64,000 nt of DNA from an uncultured Thermococci archaeon (GCA_964595645.1 CAZQQT010000004.1:1-64000), one strand, 5' to 3'; positions 29,424 to 40,702 are shown, counted from the first letter of the stretch. The notes: a model not told the origin generated them from the sequence alone. Translations and numbers: made by a program.

Positions 29424-29738
29424 TTATTCTTCTTCAAATGGACCTATCAATTTTGCTAATTCTAAAATATCTGAAAAAAATTCTGTAGTAAAAAATATTT
29501 CAGATATTGATCTAGATAATATCTCATCACCTTTTTCTCCTTTATATTTATATTTGTAAAGATTTCTATAGCCGAAGATTATATTTGGAGGCCCAGTGTC
29601 ATTAATACGGGTTCCTTTATCATATAGAACAATACCGTGATCAAATATTTGATCATTATTTTTTGGTATTTTTATACTTGTAGATTTTCTTGGATTTTGT
29701 GTATTAGTATTATATATATATATCAAGTAATTGTTCAT
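29424..29738 (-). CDS. Probable C-terminal part of the island surface protein
   Basis: Overlaps upstream ORF at the (AT)n tract; same base composition. Confidence 0.55.
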   Translation of the reverse strand: MNNYLIYIYNTNTQNPRKSTSIKIPKNNDQIFDHGIVLYDKGTRINDTGPPNIIFGYRNLYKYKYKGEKGDEILSRSISEIFFTTEFFSDILELAKLIGPFEEE

Positions 29739-31098
29739 AACCTAGTCCATTCAAGCCGAATTTGTCAAAAACTAATCTTAATGCTGCATCGGTAGATGAA
29801 TATTTAACATGTTTTGTTCCAATTGGTTTAACAGAATAATATTTAGTATTCCATGGTATACCTGTTTCCTCATCGATAAATTCTGACCAACACAATGAAA
29901 ATTCTTTACCAATACTATATTTCCAATCACAATCTCTTTTTATATCATTCCACCATCTTCCATAATTACTATAATCATAATCGTTACTCAACCATTTTAC
30001 ATATAGATTTATATCATCTACTTTGAAGAGTTTCTCCTTACCATAATAGAGAAATCCGTTTTCTCCTATCGTAAATTCAGGTAAATGTTCGTCTATTTTT
30101 CCATATAAAAATTTCTCTGGTTCTGTTTTACCATTTTTTGATTTATTTAAAACAACTTCATAAGTATCTAAAAAATTTTCTGCTCCCTTTTCATTTAGTT
30201 GTTTTAATTGTTCTTGTAAAATTGAATATCTAAATGATTTATCAATAATTTTAACTTCATGATTTTCTATAACATCATTTTCTATCATCTTTCTAAAAAA
30301 AGATGTATCAGAAATTTCAGTTAAATATTCTATGCCTGGTTTTCCTTCTTCCTCAACTATATTAAAAAGGTCAGCTATTATATTTGGTGATATATTTTCA
30401 TTAACTAATTCATCAAACGATTTTCCAACATATTTTTCATCATCAGAAATTTTTTCATTATAGTCTAAACCTCTCATATATTCTATTGCTTCTTCTGATA
30501 ACCCATTGTCTTGTCCCCATTCTAATTCCTCATCTACAGGATTTGGGGTTGGTGGTTGTGTTGTAGTTGGAGTGGGAGTAGTTGTTGGTGGTGCTGTATA
30601 TGTTGGTGATTCTGTTGGTTCTTGTGTCTCTGTAGGTTCTGGGGTTTCTGTTGGTTGCCCATTTCCTATACATCCTGAAGCAAAGGAAAATCCTAAAACT
30701 AATGCTGCTGCCACACCAACAGGCTTTTTATATTTCTTAAGAGATTCTCCAAATGATTCCTCAACACCAATTTTATTCCCAGTTGCCACAGCTGCATATT
30801 TTGTTAATTGTTCTGCTTGAGCTCTATAAATTGAAGCATCTATAATAGGATGTGTTTCTGGATGCTCCAATATATCATTATAAGCTTCTTTTGTTGGTCT
30901 AACCTGACCAGAAACATTATATTCTTTATCTAATTCTGGATTATTATTAACAGCTTGTTTAGTAAGTTGTAATAATCTACCAATATCTCTTTCATATTGT
31001 TCTCGAGTTACAGCTATAATATCTTGATTAAAAATGTCTTTTCCATATAAAGATCTTTCTTCTATGTTAAATTCTTGTTTTGGATCCATTTTTATCAC
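29710..31098 (-). CDS. Membrane-anchored protein with P/T-rich linker
   Basis: About 120-aa N-terminal region, KKYKKPVGVAAALVLGFSFASGCIG hydrophobic/lipobox-like segment, PTETPEPTETQEPTESPT...PTP linker. Confidence 0.75.
   Translation of the reverse strand: MIKMDPKQEFNIEERSLYGKDIFNQDIIAVTREQYERDIGRLLQLTKQAVNNNPELDKEYNVSGQVRPTKEAYNDILEHPETHPIIDASIYRAQAEQLTKYAAVATGNKIGVEESFGESLKKYKKPVGVAAALVLGFSFASGCIGNGQPTETPEPTETQEPTESPTYTAPPTTTPTPTTTQPPTPNPVDEELEWGQDNGLSEEAIEYMRGLDYNEKISDDEKYVGKSFDELVNENISPNIIADLFNIVEEEGKPGIEYLTEISDTSFFRKMIENDVIENHEVKIIDKSFRYSILQEQLKQLNEKGAENFLDTYEVVLNKSKNGKTEPEKFLYGKIDEHLPEFTIGENGFLYYGKEKLFKVDDINLYVKWLSNDYDYSNYGRWWNDIKRDCDWKYSIGKEFSLCWSEFIDEETGIPWNTKYYSVKPIGTKHVKYSSTDAALRLVFDKFGLNGLGYEQLLDIYI
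29711..29723. repeat. (TA)6 dinucleotide microsatellite at ORF junction
   Basis: TATATATATATAT read directly. Confidence 0.85.
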
Positions 31099-31166: not shown

Positions 31167-33959
31167 TTATTTCAACACCCGTTCCAGATACTCGCCCGTA
31201 TACGTACCCTCCTCCACGATCTCCTCAGGTGTTCCCGTGGCCACGACGTAGCCACCGTCCTCACCTCCTTCGGGACCGAGATCGATGATATGATCCGCAT
31301 TTTTAATCACCTCGAGGTTGTGCTCTATTACGAGTACGGTATTTCCCTTCTCCACAAGACGGTTAAGCACAGCGAGGAGCTTCTTGACATCGTCGAAATG
31401 AAGCCCGGTCGTCGGCTCGTCGAGAATGTACAGTGTGTCCCCAGTGGATCGTTTGCTTAGTTCCGTAGAGAGCTTTACTCGTTGTGCCTCGCCGCCGGAG
31501 AGTGTGGTGGATCGCTGTCCGAGTTTTATATATCCCATGCCCACATCGTACAGTGTCTGAAGCTTTCGTTTCGCATTGGGAATGTTCTCAAAAAACTCCA
31601 ATGCCTCCTCAACGGTCATATCGAGTACATCGGCGATGTTCTTCCCCTTATATCTTACCTCCAGCGTCTCTTTGTTGTATCGATCGCCGTGGCAAACATC
31701 ACAAGGGACATAGACATCTGGAAGGAAGTGCATCTCGATCTTCGTGACACCATGCCCTCGGCACGCCTCGCACCGTCCGCCCTTCACATTGAAACTGAAC
31801 CGTCCCTTCTCGTATCCTCGGACCTTTGACTCTGGAAGGGAAGCGAATAGTTCACGTATCGGTGTGAAGGCACTGGTATAGGTAGCTGGATTTGACCTGG
31901 GTGTCCTTCCAATAGGTGATTGATCGATAACAACGACCTTATCAATATTCTCGAGCCCTCGGAGCTCTCCATGTTCGCCGGGCCTTTTTGTGGAACTATA
32001 CAACTCCTGAGCAATTGCTCGATAGAGTGTCTCATTCACAAGAGAGGATTTTCCGGAACCGGAAACGCCCGTTACGCATACGAACACACCCAGTGGAATG
32101 TTGACGGTGATATTTTTCAGATTGTTATGTTGTACATCCGTGATAGTCAGAAAGATACTTGAATTCCTCCTTTTTTCCGGTACGGGTATCTCCAGATCCC
32201 CTTTCAGGTACTTGCCGGTGAGAGAATCTTCATTGTGTATAATCTCCTCCAGCGTCCCTTGCGCAACGACCTCTCCTCCATGAGCACCAGCGCCCGGCCC
32301 CATATCAACAATATGATCAGCACTCCGGATCATGTTTTCGTCATGCTCTATCACAATCACCGTGTTGCCGATATCCCGCAGTCGCTTGAGCGTATGAATC
32401 AATCGGGAGTTATCCCGCTGATGCAACCCAATGGTCGGCTCGTCGAGGATGTAAAGGACACCGACAAGCTTCGAACCTATTTGAGTAGCCAGCCGAATCC
32501 GTTCCGCCTCTCCTCCGGAAAGTGTGGCGGACTTCCGTTCGAGAGAGAGATAATCGAGGCCCACAGATATCAAAAATTCTAACCTGTGCCGTATCTCCTT
32601 TAATATCTGTTTTGCAATTACCTTTTCCCTTTCTGTAAGTGTTACCTGCTCAAAAAACTCATATAAATTTTTTATCGGCATTTCGGTTAACTCAATAATA
32701 TTTTTTCCTTTTATAGTAATAGAAAGACTTTCTTTTTTCAGTCGTTTTCCGTGGCAGGAGGGACATGCTCTTTCACGCATGTATTTCCGTATTTTGTTCC
32801 GAATACGCTCCGATGACGTCTCCTTGAACCTTCGCTCAAGATTTGTGATGACCCCTTCAAAGGTCCCTCTATACGTCCACGTAGAGTTCTCTCCATTGAA
32901 GGAGAAATCCATTTCATTCTCAGTACCGTGGAGAAGTTCGTTCACAACTCGTTCGTCCATCTCCTCAATGGGGATGTCTACAGTGTAGCCGTGATTTTTC
33001 ACGACGGTTCTAAGTTTCTTCATGTAGTAACTATCCCTCTTGCTTCCCCACGCATCGATCGCACCTTCTGCAAGGGAGAGTGATCTATCGGGAATAATAA
33101 GATCAGGATCCACCTGGATCTTATATCCAAGTCCATTACATTCCTCACATGCACCAAAGGGTGAGTTAAAGGAGAAACTCCGTGGCTCTATCTCGCCGAA
33201 GCTAATCCCACAGTCAGGACAGGCGAACTCCTCACTGAAAAGATGTTCCTCGTTCTCCGTTGCGATAAGAACGAGTCCTTCTCCCATTTTCAATGCGAGC
33301 TCTACGGCATCGGCTATCCGTGTCTTCTCTACCTCTTTTTCCATAGTGATTCGATCAATTACCACCTCGATGGTGTGCTTCTTGTATTTATCCAACGAGA
33401 TCTCTTCATCGAGACGGCGGAGCGCTCCATCCACTCTCACTCGTGCGAATCCATCTTTCCGCAGTCGCTCAAATTCCTGCTTATACTCTCCCTTTTTTCC
33501 CCGGGCGATGGGTGCAAGGATCGTGGTTCTCCCGCTGAACTCAAGGGCGCTCTCAATGATCTGTTGCGATGTCTGTTGCCGTATTTCCTTCCCGCATTCG
33601 GGACAGTGGGGAATGCCTACCCGTGCAAAAAGAAGTCTGAGATAATCGTATATCTCTGTGACCGTTCCCACGGTAGACCGGGGGTTCTTGGAGATCCCCT
33701 TCTGCTCAATAGAGATAGAGGGTGAGAGTCCCTCGATATATTCAACATCGGGTTTCTCCATCTGCCCTAAAAACTGTCGGGCGTAGGCAGATAACGACTC
33801 AACGTACCGCCGCTGTCCCTCAGCATAGAGGGTGTCAAAGGCTAACGATGATTTCCCTGAACCGGAAACGCCCGTAATCACAGTAAGGGTCTCTCGTGGA
33901 AGTTCGAGATCGATGTTTTTGAGGTTGTGTTCTCGTGCACCTGCAATCTTGATACTCAT
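31167..33959 (-). CDS. uvrA: Excinuclease ABC subunit A
   Basis: Two ABC cassettes ([20 protein letters not shown]), zinc fingers, [11 protein letters not shown]. Confidence 0.98.
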
Positions 33960-34019
33960 CGCTCCTCACTTCCACAATTCTACTTAAAAAGGTATGGAGA
34001 AAATTAAAAAGAAAGAAAT

Positions 34020-34526
34020 TTATAGCAATTTTACGTTTTCAAAGTGGGTAAAATCACAGTGGTGGATAATAATTCCTTCAGGTGTCCTTTTTATAAATTC
34101 TCCCTCCTTCGAATGGCCTGCAATCATGCTCACTACTTCCATAGGAAGATCAAACATCATTGCAAGACCTGCACCGGATACTGGGTGCCGTACGATCTCT
34201 CCTGCGTGGCTCTGTACAATGTTGCTTCCGCGCTTCTCATACTCGAGAAACTTCCCGATATCGTGGAGCAAGGCTCCTGCAGTAAGATAGTCCATGTTGA
34301 TATCGAATCCCCGCTGTTTCAGTACCTTTCCCATGTGGTAGCTGAGCTCGGTCACTGTATTGATATGTTCCACCAGGTTAATCTCTGTATCAACAAGAAG
34401 AGTAAATGGTATTTCGTTGATCTCCTCGTCGCTCCATTCTTTCATGGCGTGGGCCATTACCTTTTCTACCTTTTCTCTTAGATCAGTATCTTCGATTCTC
34501 TCCAAATACGGAAATCTTTCCTTCAT
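34020..34526 (-). CDS. HD-domain (HDIG) metal-dependent phosphohydrolase
   Basis: EH...LLHDIGK...RH..SG...HS....IIHHCD; ATGA overlap with citF. Confidence 0.9.
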   Translation of the reverse strand: MKERFPYLERIEDTDLREKVEKVMAHAMKEWSDEEINEIPFTLLVDTEINLVEHINTVTELSYHMGKVLKQRGFDINMDYLTAGALLHDIGKFLEYEKRGSNIVQSHAGEIVRHPVSGAGLAMMFDLPMEVVSMIAGHSKEGEFIKRTPEGIIIHHCDFTHFENVKLL

Positions 34527-36055
34527 TCTTTCACCTCTCGTACAACGTCGATGACGCTGCCATCTCGGTACTGGATTACGCCGATGATCCTCTCCTTCTT
34601 CTCCGGTTTCTCCGGCTCTCCAGCAATACTGTAGGCTTCCTCCTGGAGGTCCTTGATATCCCTCACGCAGATGCCTGCCTTTTCACACCGTTTTCTGAGA
34701 TCCTTTCTCCGTGGGTTAACAGCCACACCGACATCCGTGACAACGACATCCACCACTTCCCCCGGTGTAGTAACAGTATCAACATCCTTCACAATCACCG
34801 GAATTCGTTTTCGCAGGAGGGGGACGGTGATAATAGTCATCTTTGCCCCGGAAGCCACATCCTGATGTCCACCGATGCCGTGAAGCAGTAGCCCATCCGA
34901 GTGTGTATTCACATTAACGTTAAAATCTGTATCTACCTCTGTAGCACCGAGAAAGGCAGCATCCTCCTGATATACAACACAGCCTCTGCTGTTGTAGTTT
35001 GCGTAGATGTTTGGATCGATAAGGTAGTGGTTAGGGTTCTTTTGCAAGGATTCTATTGCTGCCTGATCAAAACTTTGACCATCGACAATACACTTTATTC
35101 TGTCCTTCTCGAGGATGTCGACAAGGTACTTCGTGGTACCTCCGCAGGCAAAACTCCCCACAATATCTTCTTCCCCCATAGCTTCGCCGAGATACTTTGT
35201 GACCGCCAGCGATACACCGCCAGCTCCAGCTTGGAAGCTGAATCCATTCTTAAAAGACCCTGAAGCCTTTATCACATCTATAACTGTCCGTGCAATCTTC
35301 AGTCGTCGGGGTGAGCGCGTAATCCTCAGTGTCCCGGAAACAATACCACTAGGATCACCGATATTGTCCTCCAAAGCCACATGATCCACGTTTGTCTGTG
35401 ACACTGTCATGGGGAGAGCGGGATAGTCCACGAGGTTATTGGTGACTACAATCACCTTATCTGCATACAATGAGTCCGCGAGCGCATACACCAACGAACC
35501 GCACGGCGTTGGACCGTAGCGGCCGTTGGCATTCCCGTATCTATCTGCAGTGGATGCAACGATAAACGCCACATCAATATGTACCTCACCGGCCTCCACC
35601 GTTCGATATCGGTTTCCATGGGAACGCAGGATCCCAGGATGCGGTAGTATTCCATGAGAAACGGCATATCCTACGGGACCGTTCATGCTCCCCTCAATCC
35701 TGTTCACTACACCATTTTTTATGTGATCGACCACAGGCTCGTGGCAGGGAAATAGCGCAGAGGGGAAAAGACGGAGGTTCTTTATTCCAAAGTCTCTGCA
35801 GATATCTAGTACTCTGTTCACCAATACATCCCCGTTTCTGAATGCATGGTGGAACGAGATGGTCATGCCATCCTTCACATACTTTTTTACTGCCTCTTCA
35901 AGACCTATCAGTTTATCTTCTCCTGGTTTGCTCGTTTTTTTCACACGTCCGTAGTTATTTCCGGTAGGTATATGTTCAAAGGGACCTTTATAGTGCTTTA
36001 CCTTTCCGTATCCTTCAATCTTATCAGGTATATCTCTTCCAACAGCATTTTTCAT
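34523..36055 (-). CDS. citF: Citrate lyase alpha subunit / citrate CoA-transferase
   Basis: KDGMTISFHHAFRNGD, RSHG, GNANG, FQAGAGG, EVDTDFNVNV, GGHQD, TPGE.VD. Confidence 0.93.
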   Translation of the reverse strand: MKNAVGRDIPDKIEGYGKVKHYKGPFEHIPTGNNYGRVKKTSKPGEDKLIGLEEAVKKYVKDGMTISFHHAFRNGDVLVNRVLDICRDFGIKNLRLFPSALFPCHEPVVDHIKNGVVNRIEGSMNGPVGYAVSHGILPHPGILRSHGNRYRTVEAGEVHIDVAFIVASTADRYGNANGRYGPTPCGSLVYALADSLYADKVIVVTNNLVDYPALPMTVSQTNVDHVALEDNIGDPSGIVSGTLRITRSPRRLKIARTVIDVIKASGSFKNGFSFQAGAGGVSLAVTKYLGEAMGEEDIVGSFACGGTTKYLVDILEKDRIKCIVDGQSFDQAAIESLQKNPNHYLIDPNIYANYNSRGCVVYQEDAAFLGATEVDTDFNVNVNTHSDGLLLHGIGGHQDVASGAKMTIITVPLLRKRIPVIVKDVDTVTTPGEVVDVVVTDVGVAVNPRRKDLRKRCEKAGICVRDIKDLQEEAYSIAGEPEKPEKKERIIGVIQYRDGSVIDVVREVKE

Positions 36056-37183
36056 CTATCTCCCCTCGTATAAGTCTATTATTTTTTGGGCTCGTTTCGC
36101 CACAGGAAGATCCACCATTCTTCCATCGACACGGGTCACACCCTCCGATTTTTCAAAGGATTCAACCATTTTTTTTGCTTCGTTATACTCCTCACGAGAC
36201 GGTGTAAACACCTTATGGATAACCAGTGCCTGCCGTGGATGGATAATACCCTTTCCATCGTACCCCATCTCCTTTATCATCTGCGTTTCCTTCTCCAGAC
36301 CTTCTTCATCATTCACATCGGGGAAGACGGTATCCAGTGCGTGGATTCCACATGCCTTCGCCGCATTCAGTATGCGTGATCGCAGGTAGAAAAGAGAGCT
36401 GTCATTCCGCTGACCGCCGACGCCTGCGAGATAGTCCTCTGCTCCAAAGGTAAGTGCAGTCACTCGCTTGTAGGATGCGATCTCAAAAGCGTTCTCCACG
36501 CCTCTCGCACTCTCGATGATGGGAACAATCATCACCTCGTTATCCTTCTCATACTGTGCTTCGTACCGTTCAATGACTTGCACAACAGTCTCTATTTCTT
36601 TCCTCGTGTCTACCTTCGGTAGAAGAATAGTATCCACATTCGTCTTCAAGATCTCTTTAAGGTCTTCTTTCCCGATTGGAAATGGATTAATCCGTACCAT
36701 AATCTCTTGTGAATAATTAAGTGTGTGAAGTGCATTTCTCACAAGTATTCGTGCATCTTGTTTATTATCAGGGCTGACTGAGTCCTCCAGATCAAGAATG
36801 ACACAATCACAATCAAATATCGTTCCGTCAAACAACAGTTTAGGATCGTTTCCGGGAAGATAAAGTCGTGTTCTCCGCAGTGTTGTGTCTTTTTTCTTTC
36901 CTCGATCAGTGACAATATTCTCTATCTCTGCGCCTGCCTTTAGAAGTGCAGACTCTATTCGTGCGGCAATCGTGAAATCATGAGCACTTTTATCGATCAC
37001 AGTGATAGTTCCACGACTCACCCCCAGATCCTCCAGTGTCCTCTCCACAGTACGCCGTATCGCCTTTCCGTAGAGTTTTTCAACCTTGCTGGTTACGGTA
37101 ATGGTCAGTTCCTCAGGCGCAAGATCAACCTCCACCCAACAGTCTGCCTTTCCTTTGGTGCCCGAAACTCCTACGCTGTTCAT
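36056..37183 (-). CDS. citE: Fusion of CitD-like carrier domain and CitE citryl-CoA lyase (beta subunit)
   Basis: N-terminal ~85 aa GT...D..V....S.V..LYG..I...D..A.D..I.AR (CitD pattern); then RRTRLYLPGN, LDLEDSV, VRIN, IIESARG, FGAEDY, GK..IHPRQ. Confidence 0.9.
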   Translation of the reverse strand: MNSVGVSGTKGKADCWVEVDLAPEELTITVTSKVEKLYGKAIRRTVERTLEDLGVSRGTITVIDKSAHDFTIAARIESALLKAGAEIENIVTDRGKKKDTTLRRTRLYLPGNDPKLLFDGTIFDCDCVILDLEDSVSPDNKQDARILVRNALHTLNYSQEIMVRINPFPIGKEDLKEILKTNVDTILLPKVDTRKEIETVVQVIERYEAQYEKDNEVMIVPIIESARGVENAFEIASYKRVTALTFGAEDYLAGVGGQRNDSSLFYLRSRILNAAKACGIHALDTVFPDVNDEEGLEKETQMIKEMGYDGKGIIHPRQALVIHKVFTPSREEYNEAKKMVESFEKSEGVTRVDGRMVDLPVAKRAQKIIDLYEGR

Positions 37184-37319
37184 ATAACCTCCTCAATTTT
37201 CACACGATAGTATAGAATGATCGGTTATAAATAGCTTTTTGTTATGAGATCTTCTGTTTCATCATTCGTCTCAAAAAGAAATATATAGATCAAAACAAAG
37301 AGGGTAGTGGTGAAGGACT

Positions 37320-38125: not shown

Positions 38126-38743
38126 CTATTGTTTGAGATCTATCTCCCATGTTGCCGTAGACTTATCTCTATATTCATTTACTAATATGAATTTTTTAAA
38201 TAAATATCTGCTCGATTTGAACTCCCAGAGTACTCGTCGCGACTCGTAAGGTGCAAGGACAATAGGAAGTTCCACAGGGGTTTTTTCTACTTTAAGTTGT
38301 GAGTATTCATACCGTACTGCAAACTCTGTGCCTTCTGCATCTATTACTTTTATTTCTATAGGGTTAAAGAGGAGCTCCTCTCTTGAAATATTCTGAAAAT
38401 ACACATCAACCCAGTATCCATCTGTATCTGATTGTAGTATATGGCGTACTACGAAATAGAGTCCTCCCTCTTTCAATACTTCATCTATTTCACCTCGTAT
38501 GGTGATGTGAGTAGGTGTGGGGGGAGAAGTGGTTGTGGAAGGAAGACTAGAAGAAGGTGGTGAAGATGGTGGTGAGGTAGGGCTCGAGGTCGTTGTAGGT
38601 ACAGAGGATGAAGTCGATGGTGTCGTGGTGGCTATCGGTGGAGATGACTGAGGAGGCGTAGCTCTATCCACAAAAATCACATACAGCGAACCGATCACCA
38701 GTATTGTCCCTACCGCAGCAACAGCTAAAATTTTTGGATCCAT
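38126..38743 (-). CDS. Membrane-anchored protein with Ser/Thr/Pro-rich linker and beta-rich domain
   Basis: N-terminal TM helix, TPPQSSPPIATTTPSTSSS linker. Confidence 0.75.
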   Translation of the reverse strand: MDPKILAVAAVGTILVIGSLYVIFVDRATPPQSSPPIATTTPSTSSSVPTTTSSPTSPPSSPPSSSLPSTTTSPPTPTHITIRGEIDEVLKEGGLYFVVRHILQSDTDGYWVDVYFQNISREELLFNPIEIKVIDAEGTEFAVRYEYSQLKVEKTPVELPIVLAPYESRRVLWEFKSSRYLFKKFILVNEYRDKSTATWEIDLKQ

Positions 38744-39057: not shown

Positions 39058-40203
39058 TTAATGTTCCCAGAGACCAATATTTCTTAGGAATTCCCTACTG
39101 TACGATCTGTCCATCATCATCCCTTTATGCTGGTACAGCCTCCTCTCCAGATGATCGAGCGTCAGGTAAAAGGCGTCTTGGGGACTCAGTCCGTTATCTC
39201 TAGCCACAAAGACACCACCTTCTGTTCCCAGTCTGATTCTACAGTTGAATACATCCTGCCCCTGAGAAGTCTCCCGTATTTTTTTAAAGTACACGAACAC
39301 ATCCCCACTTTTCAATATCTTCGCATACTTCTGAAGAACTTTTTCGAGGTGTTCGAGCATTTCTTCTCTATCAACAATCTCTTCAAGACCGGAAAAGGTA
39401 ATATAAAATCCTTTTCCTGTTCTAGGGACTGATATCTGCTCTAAAAAGTCTTTACCTGTAACAATTCCTCTAATGTTGTTTTTTTCTGTGATAGTGACAT
39501 ATGTTGATCCTCTAGAAAGCATTTTTTCTATTACTTCTTTAATTTTAGCTCCCGTCTCTATTTTCTCTACTCTAGTGCTCATGAGTTTTCTTGCAGGTAT
39601 ATCAAGACGAGAAAGCTTTTCACCAATGTATGTCCCCTCTTCTATCGAATCCAATGGAGCCACTACTTTTCTCAAGACATCGAACATTCGAATAATACCA
39701 ACAAGATCCTTTTTCTCATCTATCACCGGTAGGTGTGAGATATTGTGTTCATGGAGAATATTAATTATTTTGGCCAAAGGATCTTCTTCATGGACAAGGA
39801 TGAGATCCTGTGTCATTACATCATCGATCTTTTTTTCGCCAAGTTCCTTCTGTATTACCTTTTTCAAGATAGTATCCTGATCGACCACACCGATCATTTT
39901 TCCATTGTCGAAGACAGGGAGATTTTTTATATTGTTTTCTATCATGAGTTTCGAAATTTTCACCAGATTTGTATCGGGAGAAATTTTTGGAACTGAAAAT
40001 AAAAATTTTTTAACCTTTGTTTTTGGTTCTATTCTCGATCGTATTACCTTTCTATCAAGAAGGACACCTTTAAACTCTTTACCTTTGAAAACATAGAGTA
40101 CATTTCTATTCTTAAACTTTCGAATTACATCCTTGATAGGTGCACTATAATTAATCGTTTCGAAATCATTCGATACTATCTCTTTAGCTTGTATATTTTC
40201 CAT
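39058..40203 (-). CDS. Tandem CBS-domain protein with C-terminal HPF/RaiA-like domain (candidate ribosome hibernation factor)
   Basis: Four CBS repeats (LPVFDNGKMIGVV, LPVIDEKKDLVGII) then FNCRIRL....FVA..G....AF...LD.LERRL. Confidence 0.78.
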   Translation of the reverse strand: MENIQAKEIVSNDFETINYSAPIKDVIRKFKNRNVLYVFKGKEFKGVLLDRKVIRSRIEPKTKVKKFLFSVPKISPDTNLVKISKLMIENNIKNLPVFDNGKMIGVVDQDTILKKVIQKELGEKKIDDVMTQDLILVHEEDPLAKIINILHEHNISHLPVIDEKKDLVGIIRMFDVLRKVVAPLDSIEEGTYIGEKLSRLDIPARKLMSTRVEKIETGAKIKEVIEKMLSRGSTYVTITEKNNIRGIVTGKDFLEQISVPRTGKGFYITFSGLEEIVDREEMLEHLEKVLQKYAKILKSGDVFVYFKKIRETSQGQDVFNCRIRLGTEGGVFVARDNGLSPQDAFYLTLDHLERRLYQHKGMMMDRSYSREFLRNIGLWEH

Positions 40204-40246: not shown

Positions 40247-40702
40247 TCATTCAATTTCGATTTTCTTTTTGGTGGAGATATCCTCAGGCCTTTTTGGCAT
40301 TGTTATCTCCAAGACACCATTGTTATACTTTGCTTTTATCTTGTCCTCTTCCACCTCTACAGGGAGAGGTATCGTTCTGTAATACCCTGCATAGCCTCTC
40401 TCCTGGTAGAAGTATCCTTCCTTTTCTTCTGTTTTTACTTTTCTTTTTGAAGCTTTTATAGTTAATGTGTTGTCTCCAAGATCTACATCAATATTCTCCT
40501 TGTCAACACCCGGAAGCTCGACCTGTACCAGGAGTTCATTGCCTTTATCTATGACATCAAGTGGTGGTTCTCTGTAGTTCGCCGGCCTTATTTCTCTTCC
40601 ACCCTCCTCTCTACCAGAAGTGAGAGGGGGTCTGGAGTAGAAATCACTGAACATCCGATCCATTTCCCTTTGCATTCTCCGTATTTCGTCAAATATATCC
40701 AT
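40247..40702 (-). CDS. Small heat shock protein Hsp20
   Basis: ELPGVDKENI, ER.Y....R.I.LP, AKYNNGVLEI..PK, IEIE tail. Confidence 0.95.
   Translation of the reverse strand: MDIFDEIRRMQREMDRMFSDFYSRPPLTSGREEGGREIRPANYREPPLDVIDKGNELLVQVELPGVDKENIDVDLGDNTLTIKASKRKVKTEEKEGYFYQERGYAGYYRTIPLPVEVEEDKIKAKYNNGVLEITMPKRPEDISTKKKIEIE

Follow-up and report, generated by a model that had tools for sequence, protein, structure and literature searches.

A probable citrate lyase variant without the carrier serine, translationally coupled to an HD-domain protein, in an uncultured Thermococci archaeon

The textbook ATP-independent citrate lyase depends on a covalently bound cofactor of a unique kind, along with three helper enzymes dedicated to it. 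Its isolated alpha subunit reportedly transfers coenzyme A (CoA) between acetyl-CoA and citrate, and its isolated beta subunit is said to cleave citryl-CoA. Homologues of two of its components occur in malonate decarboxylase, where MdcA is related to CitF (the alpha subunit) and MdcC to the carrier CitD, and in the solved structure of MdcC the attachment serine lies at the tip of a beta-hairpin loop (PMC5534430). In Ignavibacterium album, CitF and a CitE-CitD fusion (IALB_1146/1147) have been annotated as an ATP-independent citrate lyase and proposed to close an unconventional reverse tricarboxylic acid (TCA) cycle, with no mention of a missing serine, missing citC, citG and citX genes or an HD partner (PMC3362086). 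Here we describe a related locus in a 64,000-nucleotide stretch of DNA from an uncultured Thermococci archaeon (GCA_964595645.1, CAZQQT010000004.1:1-64000; hereafter the window), in which a three-gene set at positions 34020-37183 encodes a CitD-CitE fusion, CitF and an HD-domain protein. The carrier domain of this set lacks the attachment serine and the genome lacks the genes for loading it. This serine-less citrate lyase is a variant of a known enzyme system that is undescribed in the literature searched, where we found no account of a serine-less CitD, of CitF working with citryl-CoA lyase (Ccl), or of an HD protein in citrate-cleavage clusters.

All three genes lie on the minus strand. The citDE fusion gene (36056-37183, 375 amino acids) is the first of the unit and is abutted by citF (34523-36055, 510 amino acids), the stop codon of which is overlapped by 4 nt (ATGA) by the start of the HD (HDIG) protein gene (34020-34526, 168 amino acids). 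Gene calls and family matches are in accord with the first-pass annotation, made from the sequence alone, which had proposed a three-gene operon with abutting or overlapping ends. Within the fusion, a carrier (CitD-like) domain (residues 1-82; 36938-37183, minus strand) is joined to a CitE-type lyase domain (residues 105-375 and the stop codon; 36056-36871, minus strand) by a flexible linker of 22 residues (83-104; 36872-36937, minus strand), for which no secondary structure was predicted and where the predicted local distance difference test (pLDDT) score dips to 73-86.

The carrier domain was matched by PF06857 (ACP/CitD) at residues 6-82 with 62.8 bits (cut-off 25.1), and an AlphaFold model of the fusion (mean pLDDT 92.6) presented it as a well-folded alpha/beta domain; a sequence search of the PDB with this domain yielded chance matches only. 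The carrier and its relatives were aligned by MAFFT L-INS-i with five canonical CitD references, from E. coli K-12 and the plasmid-borne cit operons of Enterococcus, Melissococcus, Gluconobacter and Klebsiella. The site region was ungapped, with SGTKGKAD of the window lying opposite the canonical AGTLES[GS]D, which places Lys12 (codon 37148-37150) opposite Ser14 of E. coli CitD and Ala13 opposite the following Gly/Ser15. Although the PF06857 fold is present, the attachment serine of a classical CitD is therefore absent and Lys12 stands in its place, as the first-pass annotation had claimed; Ser7 is not at the attachment site, being opposite the Ala of the canonical AG motif. In the model, Lys12 is held by a loop (residues 8-13) between strands beta1 (4-7) and beta2 (14-20), all with pLDDT values of 85-95.

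The source assembly comprises 1.97 Mb, with a completeness of 99.96%. Searches with the Pfam models of citG, citX and citC (PF01874, PF03802 and PF08218) retrieved no match in the operon or in the whole genome, whereas control genomes were matched, hence the earlier claim that these genes are missing from the operon extends to the entire genome. No phosphopantetheinyl transferase of the ACPS type was found in the genome either, and Ser7 is unconserved outside the close family; its candidacy as a phosphopantetheine site was rejected on these two grounds.

Homologues of the fusion protein number in the thousands. The closest are archaeal (66-71% identity), and the remainder, at approximately 45% identity, originate from Bacteroidota, Ignavibacteria, Calditrichota, Cloacimonadota, Planctomycetota and others. 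The residue opposite Ser14 was tabulated for 146 non-canonical carrier domains and was Arg in 111, Lys in 23, Ser in four and another residue in eight, a basic residue thus being present in 134 of them. The commonest tetrads at the site were RSDC (106), KSDC (8), KGDC (6) and KADC (3), the last being that of the window. The four Ser rows were all free-standing CitD proteins of Synergistota carrying the canonical AGTLES motif (AGTLESMDC). The set had initially been rated as the best candidate for an undescribed system in the window; it was indeed not found in the literature searched, but it is no rarity of the window, since its family is very large and the genome contains a second copy.

It was found that the serine co-varies with the loading genes. 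Both CitG (E 4e-65) and CitX (E 5e-35) were detected in the one Synergistota genome of the Ser type that was tested, whereas neither was present in four genomes from four phyla that encode fusions of the Arg/Lys type (a complete Fidelibacterota chromosome, and Ignavibacteriaceae, Chloroflexota and Bipolaricaulota genomes). Five further genomes had no detected CitX, and two had no detected CitG. An even set of 251 genomes was drawn from the Bacteroidota-level phylum to which the Ignavibacteriaceae genome belongs; 20 of these encoded the full-length fusion, and CitG, as well as CitX above its family cut-off, was found in none of the 251. Serine-less fusions thus occur without citG and citX in the genomes tested, a point that the first-pass annotation had put forward for testing, and 18 of the 20 fusion genomes also encode the HD family, the co-occurrence of which it had likewise proposed to check. 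In the class to which the window belongs, the CitG family was identified in 54 of 61 genomes, including all of the Thermococcales-like ones, which have neither CitD nor CitF, yet it was absent from all six genomes of the window's own family, each of which holds CitF; archaeal CitG homologues thus appear to serve something other than citrate lyase, and the lyase of the window's family does without them. The pattern of serine versus CitG and CitX had no exceptions among the genomes tested.

In Theionarchaea-like loci (L116:493-1056 and L027), citF and the HD gene are separated by a conserved open reading frame (ORF) of 187 amino acids that has no Pfam match, PrpD comes next, and the carriers read AGT[ND]DDSD, with Ser one column past the canonical site. 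Four Thermoplasmata loci encode the HD protein directly followed by a CitD-CitE fusion with the tetrads ARDC, ERDC or KRDC, with no CitF within the locus. In a Bacteroidota locus that contains no HD gene (L008:3619-7987), citDE-citF is immediately preceded by four consecutive ADP-ribosylglycohydrolase-family genes.

The 510-amino acid protein was assigned to CitF by TIGR01584 (606.8 bits, equivalog cut-off 501.45) and PF04223 (E 8e-164), and on sequence grounds is a probable citrate:acetyl-CoA CoA-transferase. In a CitF tree it fell inside a large non-canonical clade, as sister to the CitF proteins of Bipolaricaulota and Thermotogota (support 98/97) and apart from that of E. coli. The lyase domain of the fusion, a probable citryl-CoA lyase, was matched by HpcH_HpaI (CitE) at residues 104-316 (E 1.6e-54), and its residues E133, D134, E249 and D250 are invariant in 29 homologues. 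Models of characterised acyl-CoA lyases scored below their cut-offs on this domain (NF038242, RipC_Ccl, 171 bits against 375; NF041626, 70.7 bits against 500), and both were outscored on the fusion protein by the citE model.

A second set was identified on another contig (C7; L022:8094-13976), where genes for an aconitase, CitD, CitE, CitF and a dehydrogenase of the isocitrate dehydrogenase (IDH) family follow each other with overlapping ends. The aconitase is an aconitate hydratase (NF005558, 939 bits, cut-off 612) and the CitF scored 612 bits with its NCBIfam model. The second citD for which the first-pass annotation had advised a search is thus present, unfused and likewise with Lys in the Ser14 column (AGTDNKMD); the protein has no serine in its entire length, and a homologue search with its 96 amino acids retrieved only itself. 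The two sets are divergent paralogues, with 45% identity between the CitE and 49% between the CitF proteins. No citrate-synthase-family domain (PF00285) was matched in the genome, hence citrate synthase, ATP-citrate lyase (ACL) and citryl-CoA lyase are all absent from it, and the two CitDEF-like sets are its only recognisable citrate-forming or citrate-cleaving enzymes.

Natural operons in which CitF occurs with no carrier were encountered in four other Thermoplasmata loci, which have the order HD-CitF-Ccl, in some cases followed by aconitase, and in which neither CitD nor CitE is encoded within 10 kb. The 259-amino acid Ccl is a citryl-CoA lyase (NF004866, 286 bits, cut-off 245), and the adjacent CitF, of the same large non-canonical clade as that of the window, scored 512.8 bits with TIGR01584 (cut-off 501.45). 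A CitF that stands alone beside a lyase of free citryl-CoA can have hardly any role other than making free citryl-CoA, and CitF and Ccl of these Thermoplasmata are a hybrid, apparently ATP-independent citrate-cleaving pair.

Taken together with the co-variation of the serine with CitG and CitX, these operons make the use of free CoA thioesters, as put forward in the first-pass annotation, the best-supported reading. We consider it probable, with considerable room for doubt, that the three genes of the window encode a form of citrate lyase devoid of the covalent phosphoribosyl-dephospho-CoA arm and with a carrier turned into a docking module. CitF would move CoA from free acetyl-CoA to citrate, giving free (3S)-citryl-CoA and acetate; the CitE domain would then split citryl-CoA into oxaloacetate and acetyl-CoA, and the acetyl-CoA would re-enter the first step. 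The net reaction would be citrate to acetate and oxaloacetate, with acetyl-CoA acting catalytically and no ATP consumed. The former carrier domain would have been retained, still folded, to dock the lyase onto CitF; the hairpin loop in which Lys12 has taken the place of the serine would face CitF and perhaps contact the nucleotide end of the bound CoA. The HD protein would be a metal-dependent enzyme of citrate-cleavage, aconitase and IDH modules in general, which neither builds nor services a prosthetic group.

The proposed docking was examined by complex prediction. CitF and CitDE, with CoA included, scored 0.82 against 0.01 for the best of three controls; among reference sets, 58 of 80 solved complexes attain that mark, as do two of 110 mismatched pairs. 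Contacts agreed fully (100%) between runs and the partner pLDDT was at least 90. On the carrier side the predicted interface comprised residues 12-13, 34, 36-41 and 65-69, along with some CitE residues, and on the CitF side residues 386-387, 416-418, 441-442 and 477-484; carrier residue 13 touches CitF residue 416, which adjoins the family-invariant Arg415. The confident fold and the predicted docking on CitF both fit the earlier suggestion of a retained scaffold, and from the model we infer that the carrier domain is kept as a docking module holding the lyase on the transferase. In a model of MdcA, approximately 10 Å separate the MdcC serine from the 2'-OH of the ribose in the bound cofactor (PMC5534430). 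At such a spacing, Lys or Arg at that site could, speculatively, reach the 3'-phosphate of free CoA.

A number of points weigh against this account. The complex score leaves the CoA ligand unscored, and a homologous MdcA-MdcC complex has been solved, hence the docking pass may derive from that complex and shows a likeness, not proof. The best NCBIfam model for the CitE domain, TIGR01588 (citE), reached 253 bits, which is under its equivalog cut-off of 443. The co-occurrence counts were drawn from related genomes and are thus non-independent events. The fused set adjoins neither aconitase nor IDH in the source genome, so its substrate could be another hydroxy acid. Furthermore, the carrier and its Lys/Arg site are strongly conserved, which a purely structural role does not obviously require and which could reflect another covalent modification, and the RSDC subtype has a near-invariant serine directly after the basic residue that could be a shifted attachment site served by loaders of an unrecognised kind.

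These last points lead to the alternative that the carrier remains a true acyl carrier with a different covalent group, on Lys12, the nearby conserved Cys15 or the serine of RSDC, and with loading enzymes that were not recognised, which we regard as quite unlikely. The basic residue in 134 of 146 domains, the recurrence of the RSDC, KSDC, KGDC and KADC tetrads and a loop predicted to face CitF would all suit such a carrier, and the genome does contain two ligase genes of the BPL/LplA family, which modifies lysines in other proteins; one GNAT-HD fusion among the HD family representatives might also be taken as a hint. However, no candidate loading gene was linked to the operon in approximately 90 loci examined, and the carrier fold is not that of a biotinyl or lipoyl domain. 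BPL/LplA genes were present in all 14 control genomes and are thus uninformative; lipoylation or biotinylation of Lys12 was rejected, these genes being also unlinked to the operon. Cys15 as an acyl-carrying thiol was likewise discarded, given that canonical CitD has a buried V/I in that column and the other serine-less carriers have L/I/V, so that the residue is not a general one, and the second CitD of the genome has neither Ser nor Cys.

With regard to the substrate, the first-pass annotation had left a choice between citrate, citramalate and another hydroxy acid. Citrate is favoured for the window set by the aconitase and IDH genes of orthologous operons and by the score of CitF above its equivalog cut-off, citramalate being the less favoured candidate. 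The absence of any citrate-synthase-family gene from the genome, and the aconitase and IDH-family genes that flank its second set, point the same way. Operons of the sister clade in Bipolaricaulota have the order CitDE-CitF-HD-LeuC/D, in some cases followed by IDH. A related alternative, in which the fused set acts on citramalate, homocitrate or methylcitrate and the second set is the real citrate enzyme, would account for the divergence of the two paralogues, the location of the fused set away from aconitase and IDH, the sub-threshold score of the CitE domain and the many HD-linked operons with LeuC/LeuD-type hydratases and PrpD instead of a classical aconitase. It is at odds with the equivalog-level match of CitF, with fused sets that share an operon with aconitase and IDH families in Calditrichota, Fidelibacterota, Chloroflexota, Ignavibacteriota and Bipolaricaulota, and with the company that the HD family also keeps with the citrate-specific ACL and citryl-CoA synthetase (CCS)/Ccl, and in our judgement it is improbable.

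As to direction, homologous operons that bring ACL or Ccs/Ccl together with aconitase and IDH suggest that flux would be reductive, from 2-oxoglutarate via isocitrate and citrate to oxaloacetate and acetate, in agreement with what was proposed for the I. album fusion (PMC3362086). Citrate formation from acetate and oxaloacetate would be thermodynamically poor at physiological concentrations, but could be possible where acetate is abundant.

The HD protein was matched by TIGR00277 (HDIG; 42.4 bits, cut-off 27.6) and PF01966 (38.2 bits, cut-off 22). The metal ligands of HD proteins (H...HD...D) are present as H54, H88-D89, H114, H138 and D158, and of these H54, D89, H114, H138 and D158 are invariant in 31 homologues. 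Its model is all-helical (pLDDT 95.6) and resembles HD structures. Foldseek and PDB profile searches retrieved generic HD hydrolases only, the best being the HD domain of YhaM (TMq 0.67, E 2e-4) with a best profile match of E 9e-4, and a protein-atlas look-up returned only clusters named 'HD domain-containing protein'; no close relative that has been characterised was found. The family is a distinct one, with 243 representatives at E <= 1e-30. Its alignment showed H54, D89, G91, K92, E95, R113, H114, H138, E141, G142, E150 and D158 to be invariant, along with an IPFTLL motif; the His of the HD motif is replaced by Ile or Ala in one subgroup. A single GNAT acetyltransferase-HD fusion was seen among the 150 best family representatives, the rest being HD only, and was considered too thin to serve as Rosetta-stone evidence for function.

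Genomic neighbourhoods of the HD family were scanned with one genome per species, which yielded 80 loci spread over both domains and more than 15 phyla, and the neighbours were clustered. Aconitase/LeuC-family genes were found at 44 of these loci, IDH-family genes at 37, CitDE or CitE at 26, CitF at 20, LeuD at 18, ATP-grasp subunits of ACL or citryl-CoA synthetase at 11, PrpD at 10, citryl-CoA lyase at nine and ACL alpha at six. An aconitase, IDH or citrate-cleaving gene lay within 7.5 kb at 70 of the 80 loci; of the 38 loci flanked on either side by 5 kb or more, 35 had such a neighbour and 28 a citrate-cleaving enzyme. The commonest immediate neighbour of the HD gene was of the aconitase family. 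For instance, a Calditrichota homologue (41% identity, E 2e-41) is part of a TrmB-IDH-HD-aconitase-CitDE-CitF cluster. Among the 61 class relatives, strong HD matches were restricted to genomes that hold CitF or, in one case, to an incomplete genome of a CitF-holding genus, and in the phylum sample all 18 HD-positive genomes fell within the 20 fusion carriers, with the HD gene in none of the other 231. Two fusion-positive genomes of that sample (G176 and G228) lack the HD gene.

The HD family is thus a component of citrate-cleavage modules irrespective of their lyase type. The first-pass annotation had suggested that the protein may be an accessory such as a CoA-nucleotide phosphohydrolase; such a role in servicing the carrier does not hold, because members of this family also accompany the carrier-free ACL and citryl-CoA synthetase/lyase systems and, in a Synergistota genome with CitG and CitX, a canonical Ser-type CitD. 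A carrier-specific accessory was rejected in view of these neighbourhoods. The coupling itself is real and tighter than anticipated. We would guess at a di-metal hydrolase that handles a by-product or a regulator at the citrate/oxaloacetate node, with low confidence in any specific substrate. A more ambitious joint proposal, namely a widespread prosthetic-group-free citrate lyase in which Lys/Arg on the vestigial carrier loop binds free acetyl- or citryl-CoA non-covalently, perhaps through its 3'-phosphate, and passes it between CitF and CitE, along with a dedicated HD metalloenzyme that is a required component of CitEF-, ACL- and Ccs/Ccl-type cleavage, is doubtful.

That the HD protein has instead nothing to do with the lyase and is just a conserved neighbour, for instance a hydrolase of nucleotides or RNA kept in place by synteny with uvrA, could be argued from the retention of the whole order citDE-citF-HD-uvrA in the closest archaeal relatives (L002 and L005) and from its best structural and sequence matches, all of a generic HD-hydrolase kind, among them the exoribonuclease domain of YhaM. 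Nonetheless, this is very unlikely in view of the linkage across more than 15 phyla and both domains in differing gene orders, the nesting of HD presence within lyase presence in two independent taxon samples, and the overlap of the HD start with the citF stop. Less plausible still, to the point of being scarcely tenable, is a classical 2'-(5''-phosphoribosyl)-3'-dephospho-CoA group on Ser7 or another residue with loaders too divergent to detect: Ser7 is kept with its SG motif in the eight closest archaeal homologues, but it stands opposite the canonical Ala and is unconserved in the sister Bipolaricaulota carriers and the second CitD, which contains no serine at all, and the CitG, CitX and CitC models that failed here matched control genomes, with those for CitG and CitX able to find loaders in the Ser-type genome tested.

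Signals flanking the three genes were read from the sequence. A TATA-like element, TATTTATAA, is a putative archaeal promoter at 37225-37233 (minus strand), approximately 46 nt upstream of the citDE start and inside a 136-bp divergent intergenic region common to citDE and a short-chain dehydrogenase/reductase (SDR) gene. A ribosome-binding site, GAGGAGG (37188-37194, minus strand), lies 4 nt before the citDE ATG, and a T-rich tract after the HD stop codon and before uvrA (33999-34019, minus strand) is a probable archaeal terminator. With the TATA-like element and ribosome-binding site at the 5' end and the T-rich tract at the 3' end, the three genes look like one transcription unit, apart from uvrA. 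The latter (31167-33959, minus strand) is directly downstream of the HD gene, and the T-rich tract together with a separate uvrA ribosome-binding site suggests that it is transcribed on its own. Elsewhere in the window, a 381-amino acid protein (39058-40203, minus strand) has three CBS-domain matches and, at its C-terminus, a ribosome-hibernation (S30AE) domain; its gene is adjoined by an Hsp20 gene (40247-40702). A CDC48-type ATPase is also among the window neighbours, which together with the relatives identified show that the DNA is archaeal. Two ORFs had no Pfam match (29710-31098, 462 amino acids, and 38126-38743, 205 amino acids, both on the minus strand).

If the preferred reading of a free-CoA citrate lyase is true, a natural and widespread cofactor-free version would change the annotation of citrate cleavage, in that many anaerobes and uncultured lineages whose reductive TCA cycle, or citrate and glutamate fermentation, is labelled 'incomplete' may have a working citrate-cleaving step. 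It would also give metabolic engineering a simpler, two-gene citrate lyase. The nesting of one HD family within three unrelated types of citrate-cleaving enzyme points to an unrecognised step or control at the citrate/oxaloacetate node.

Compared with the classical CitDEF systems (E. coli citCDEFXG, Klebsiella and Enterococcus; EC 4.1.3.6), the window set has homologous alpha, beta and gamma parts in the same order D-E-F, the metal-binding acidic residues of CitE, the carrier fold and a hairpin loop facing the transferase. It differs in the fusion of carrier to CitE, in Lys for Ser14, in the HD gene translationally coupled to citF, in the clade of its CitF, which is apart from that of E. coli, and in a genome devoid of triphosphoribosyl-dephospho-CoA synthase, of holo-ACP synthase and of acetate:SH-citrate-lyase ligase. 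In malonate decarboxylase, the MdcC serine loop points into the transferase, and the predicted window interface similarly uses the two helices of the carrier (PMC5534430); unlike the window carrier, with its Lys and no loader, MdcC carries its group on Ser25 and needs MdcB and MdcG.

Metal-dependent hydrolases of the HD type (the YhaM HD domain, 9h3f; HD-GYP Bd1817; YqeK; PgpH) share with the window protein an all-helical fold, the ligand pattern H...HD...H...H...D and the HDxGK motif, whilst the window family is distant from them (best template modelling score 0.67; profile E 9e-4) and has invariant IPFTLL, RHP and HSxEG motifs.

The route proposed for the window resembles those of CcsAB with Ccl and of ACL in the reductive TCA cycle, in that free or enzyme-bound citryl-CoA would yield acetyl-CoA and oxaloacetate, and operons of these systems contain the same HD-, aconitase- and IDH-family genes as those of the window family. 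In contrast to CcsAB and ACL, citryl-CoA would here come from CoA transfer off acetyl-CoA and not from ATP, and the lyase is the HpcH/HpaI TIM-barrel of CitE, unlike the citrate-synthase fold of Ccl and ACL. The described proteins of I. album, IALB_1146/1147, have the same two-gene architecture as the window set and are part of the same large family, with bacterial proteins of this type representing the RSDC subtype and the window the KADC subtype.

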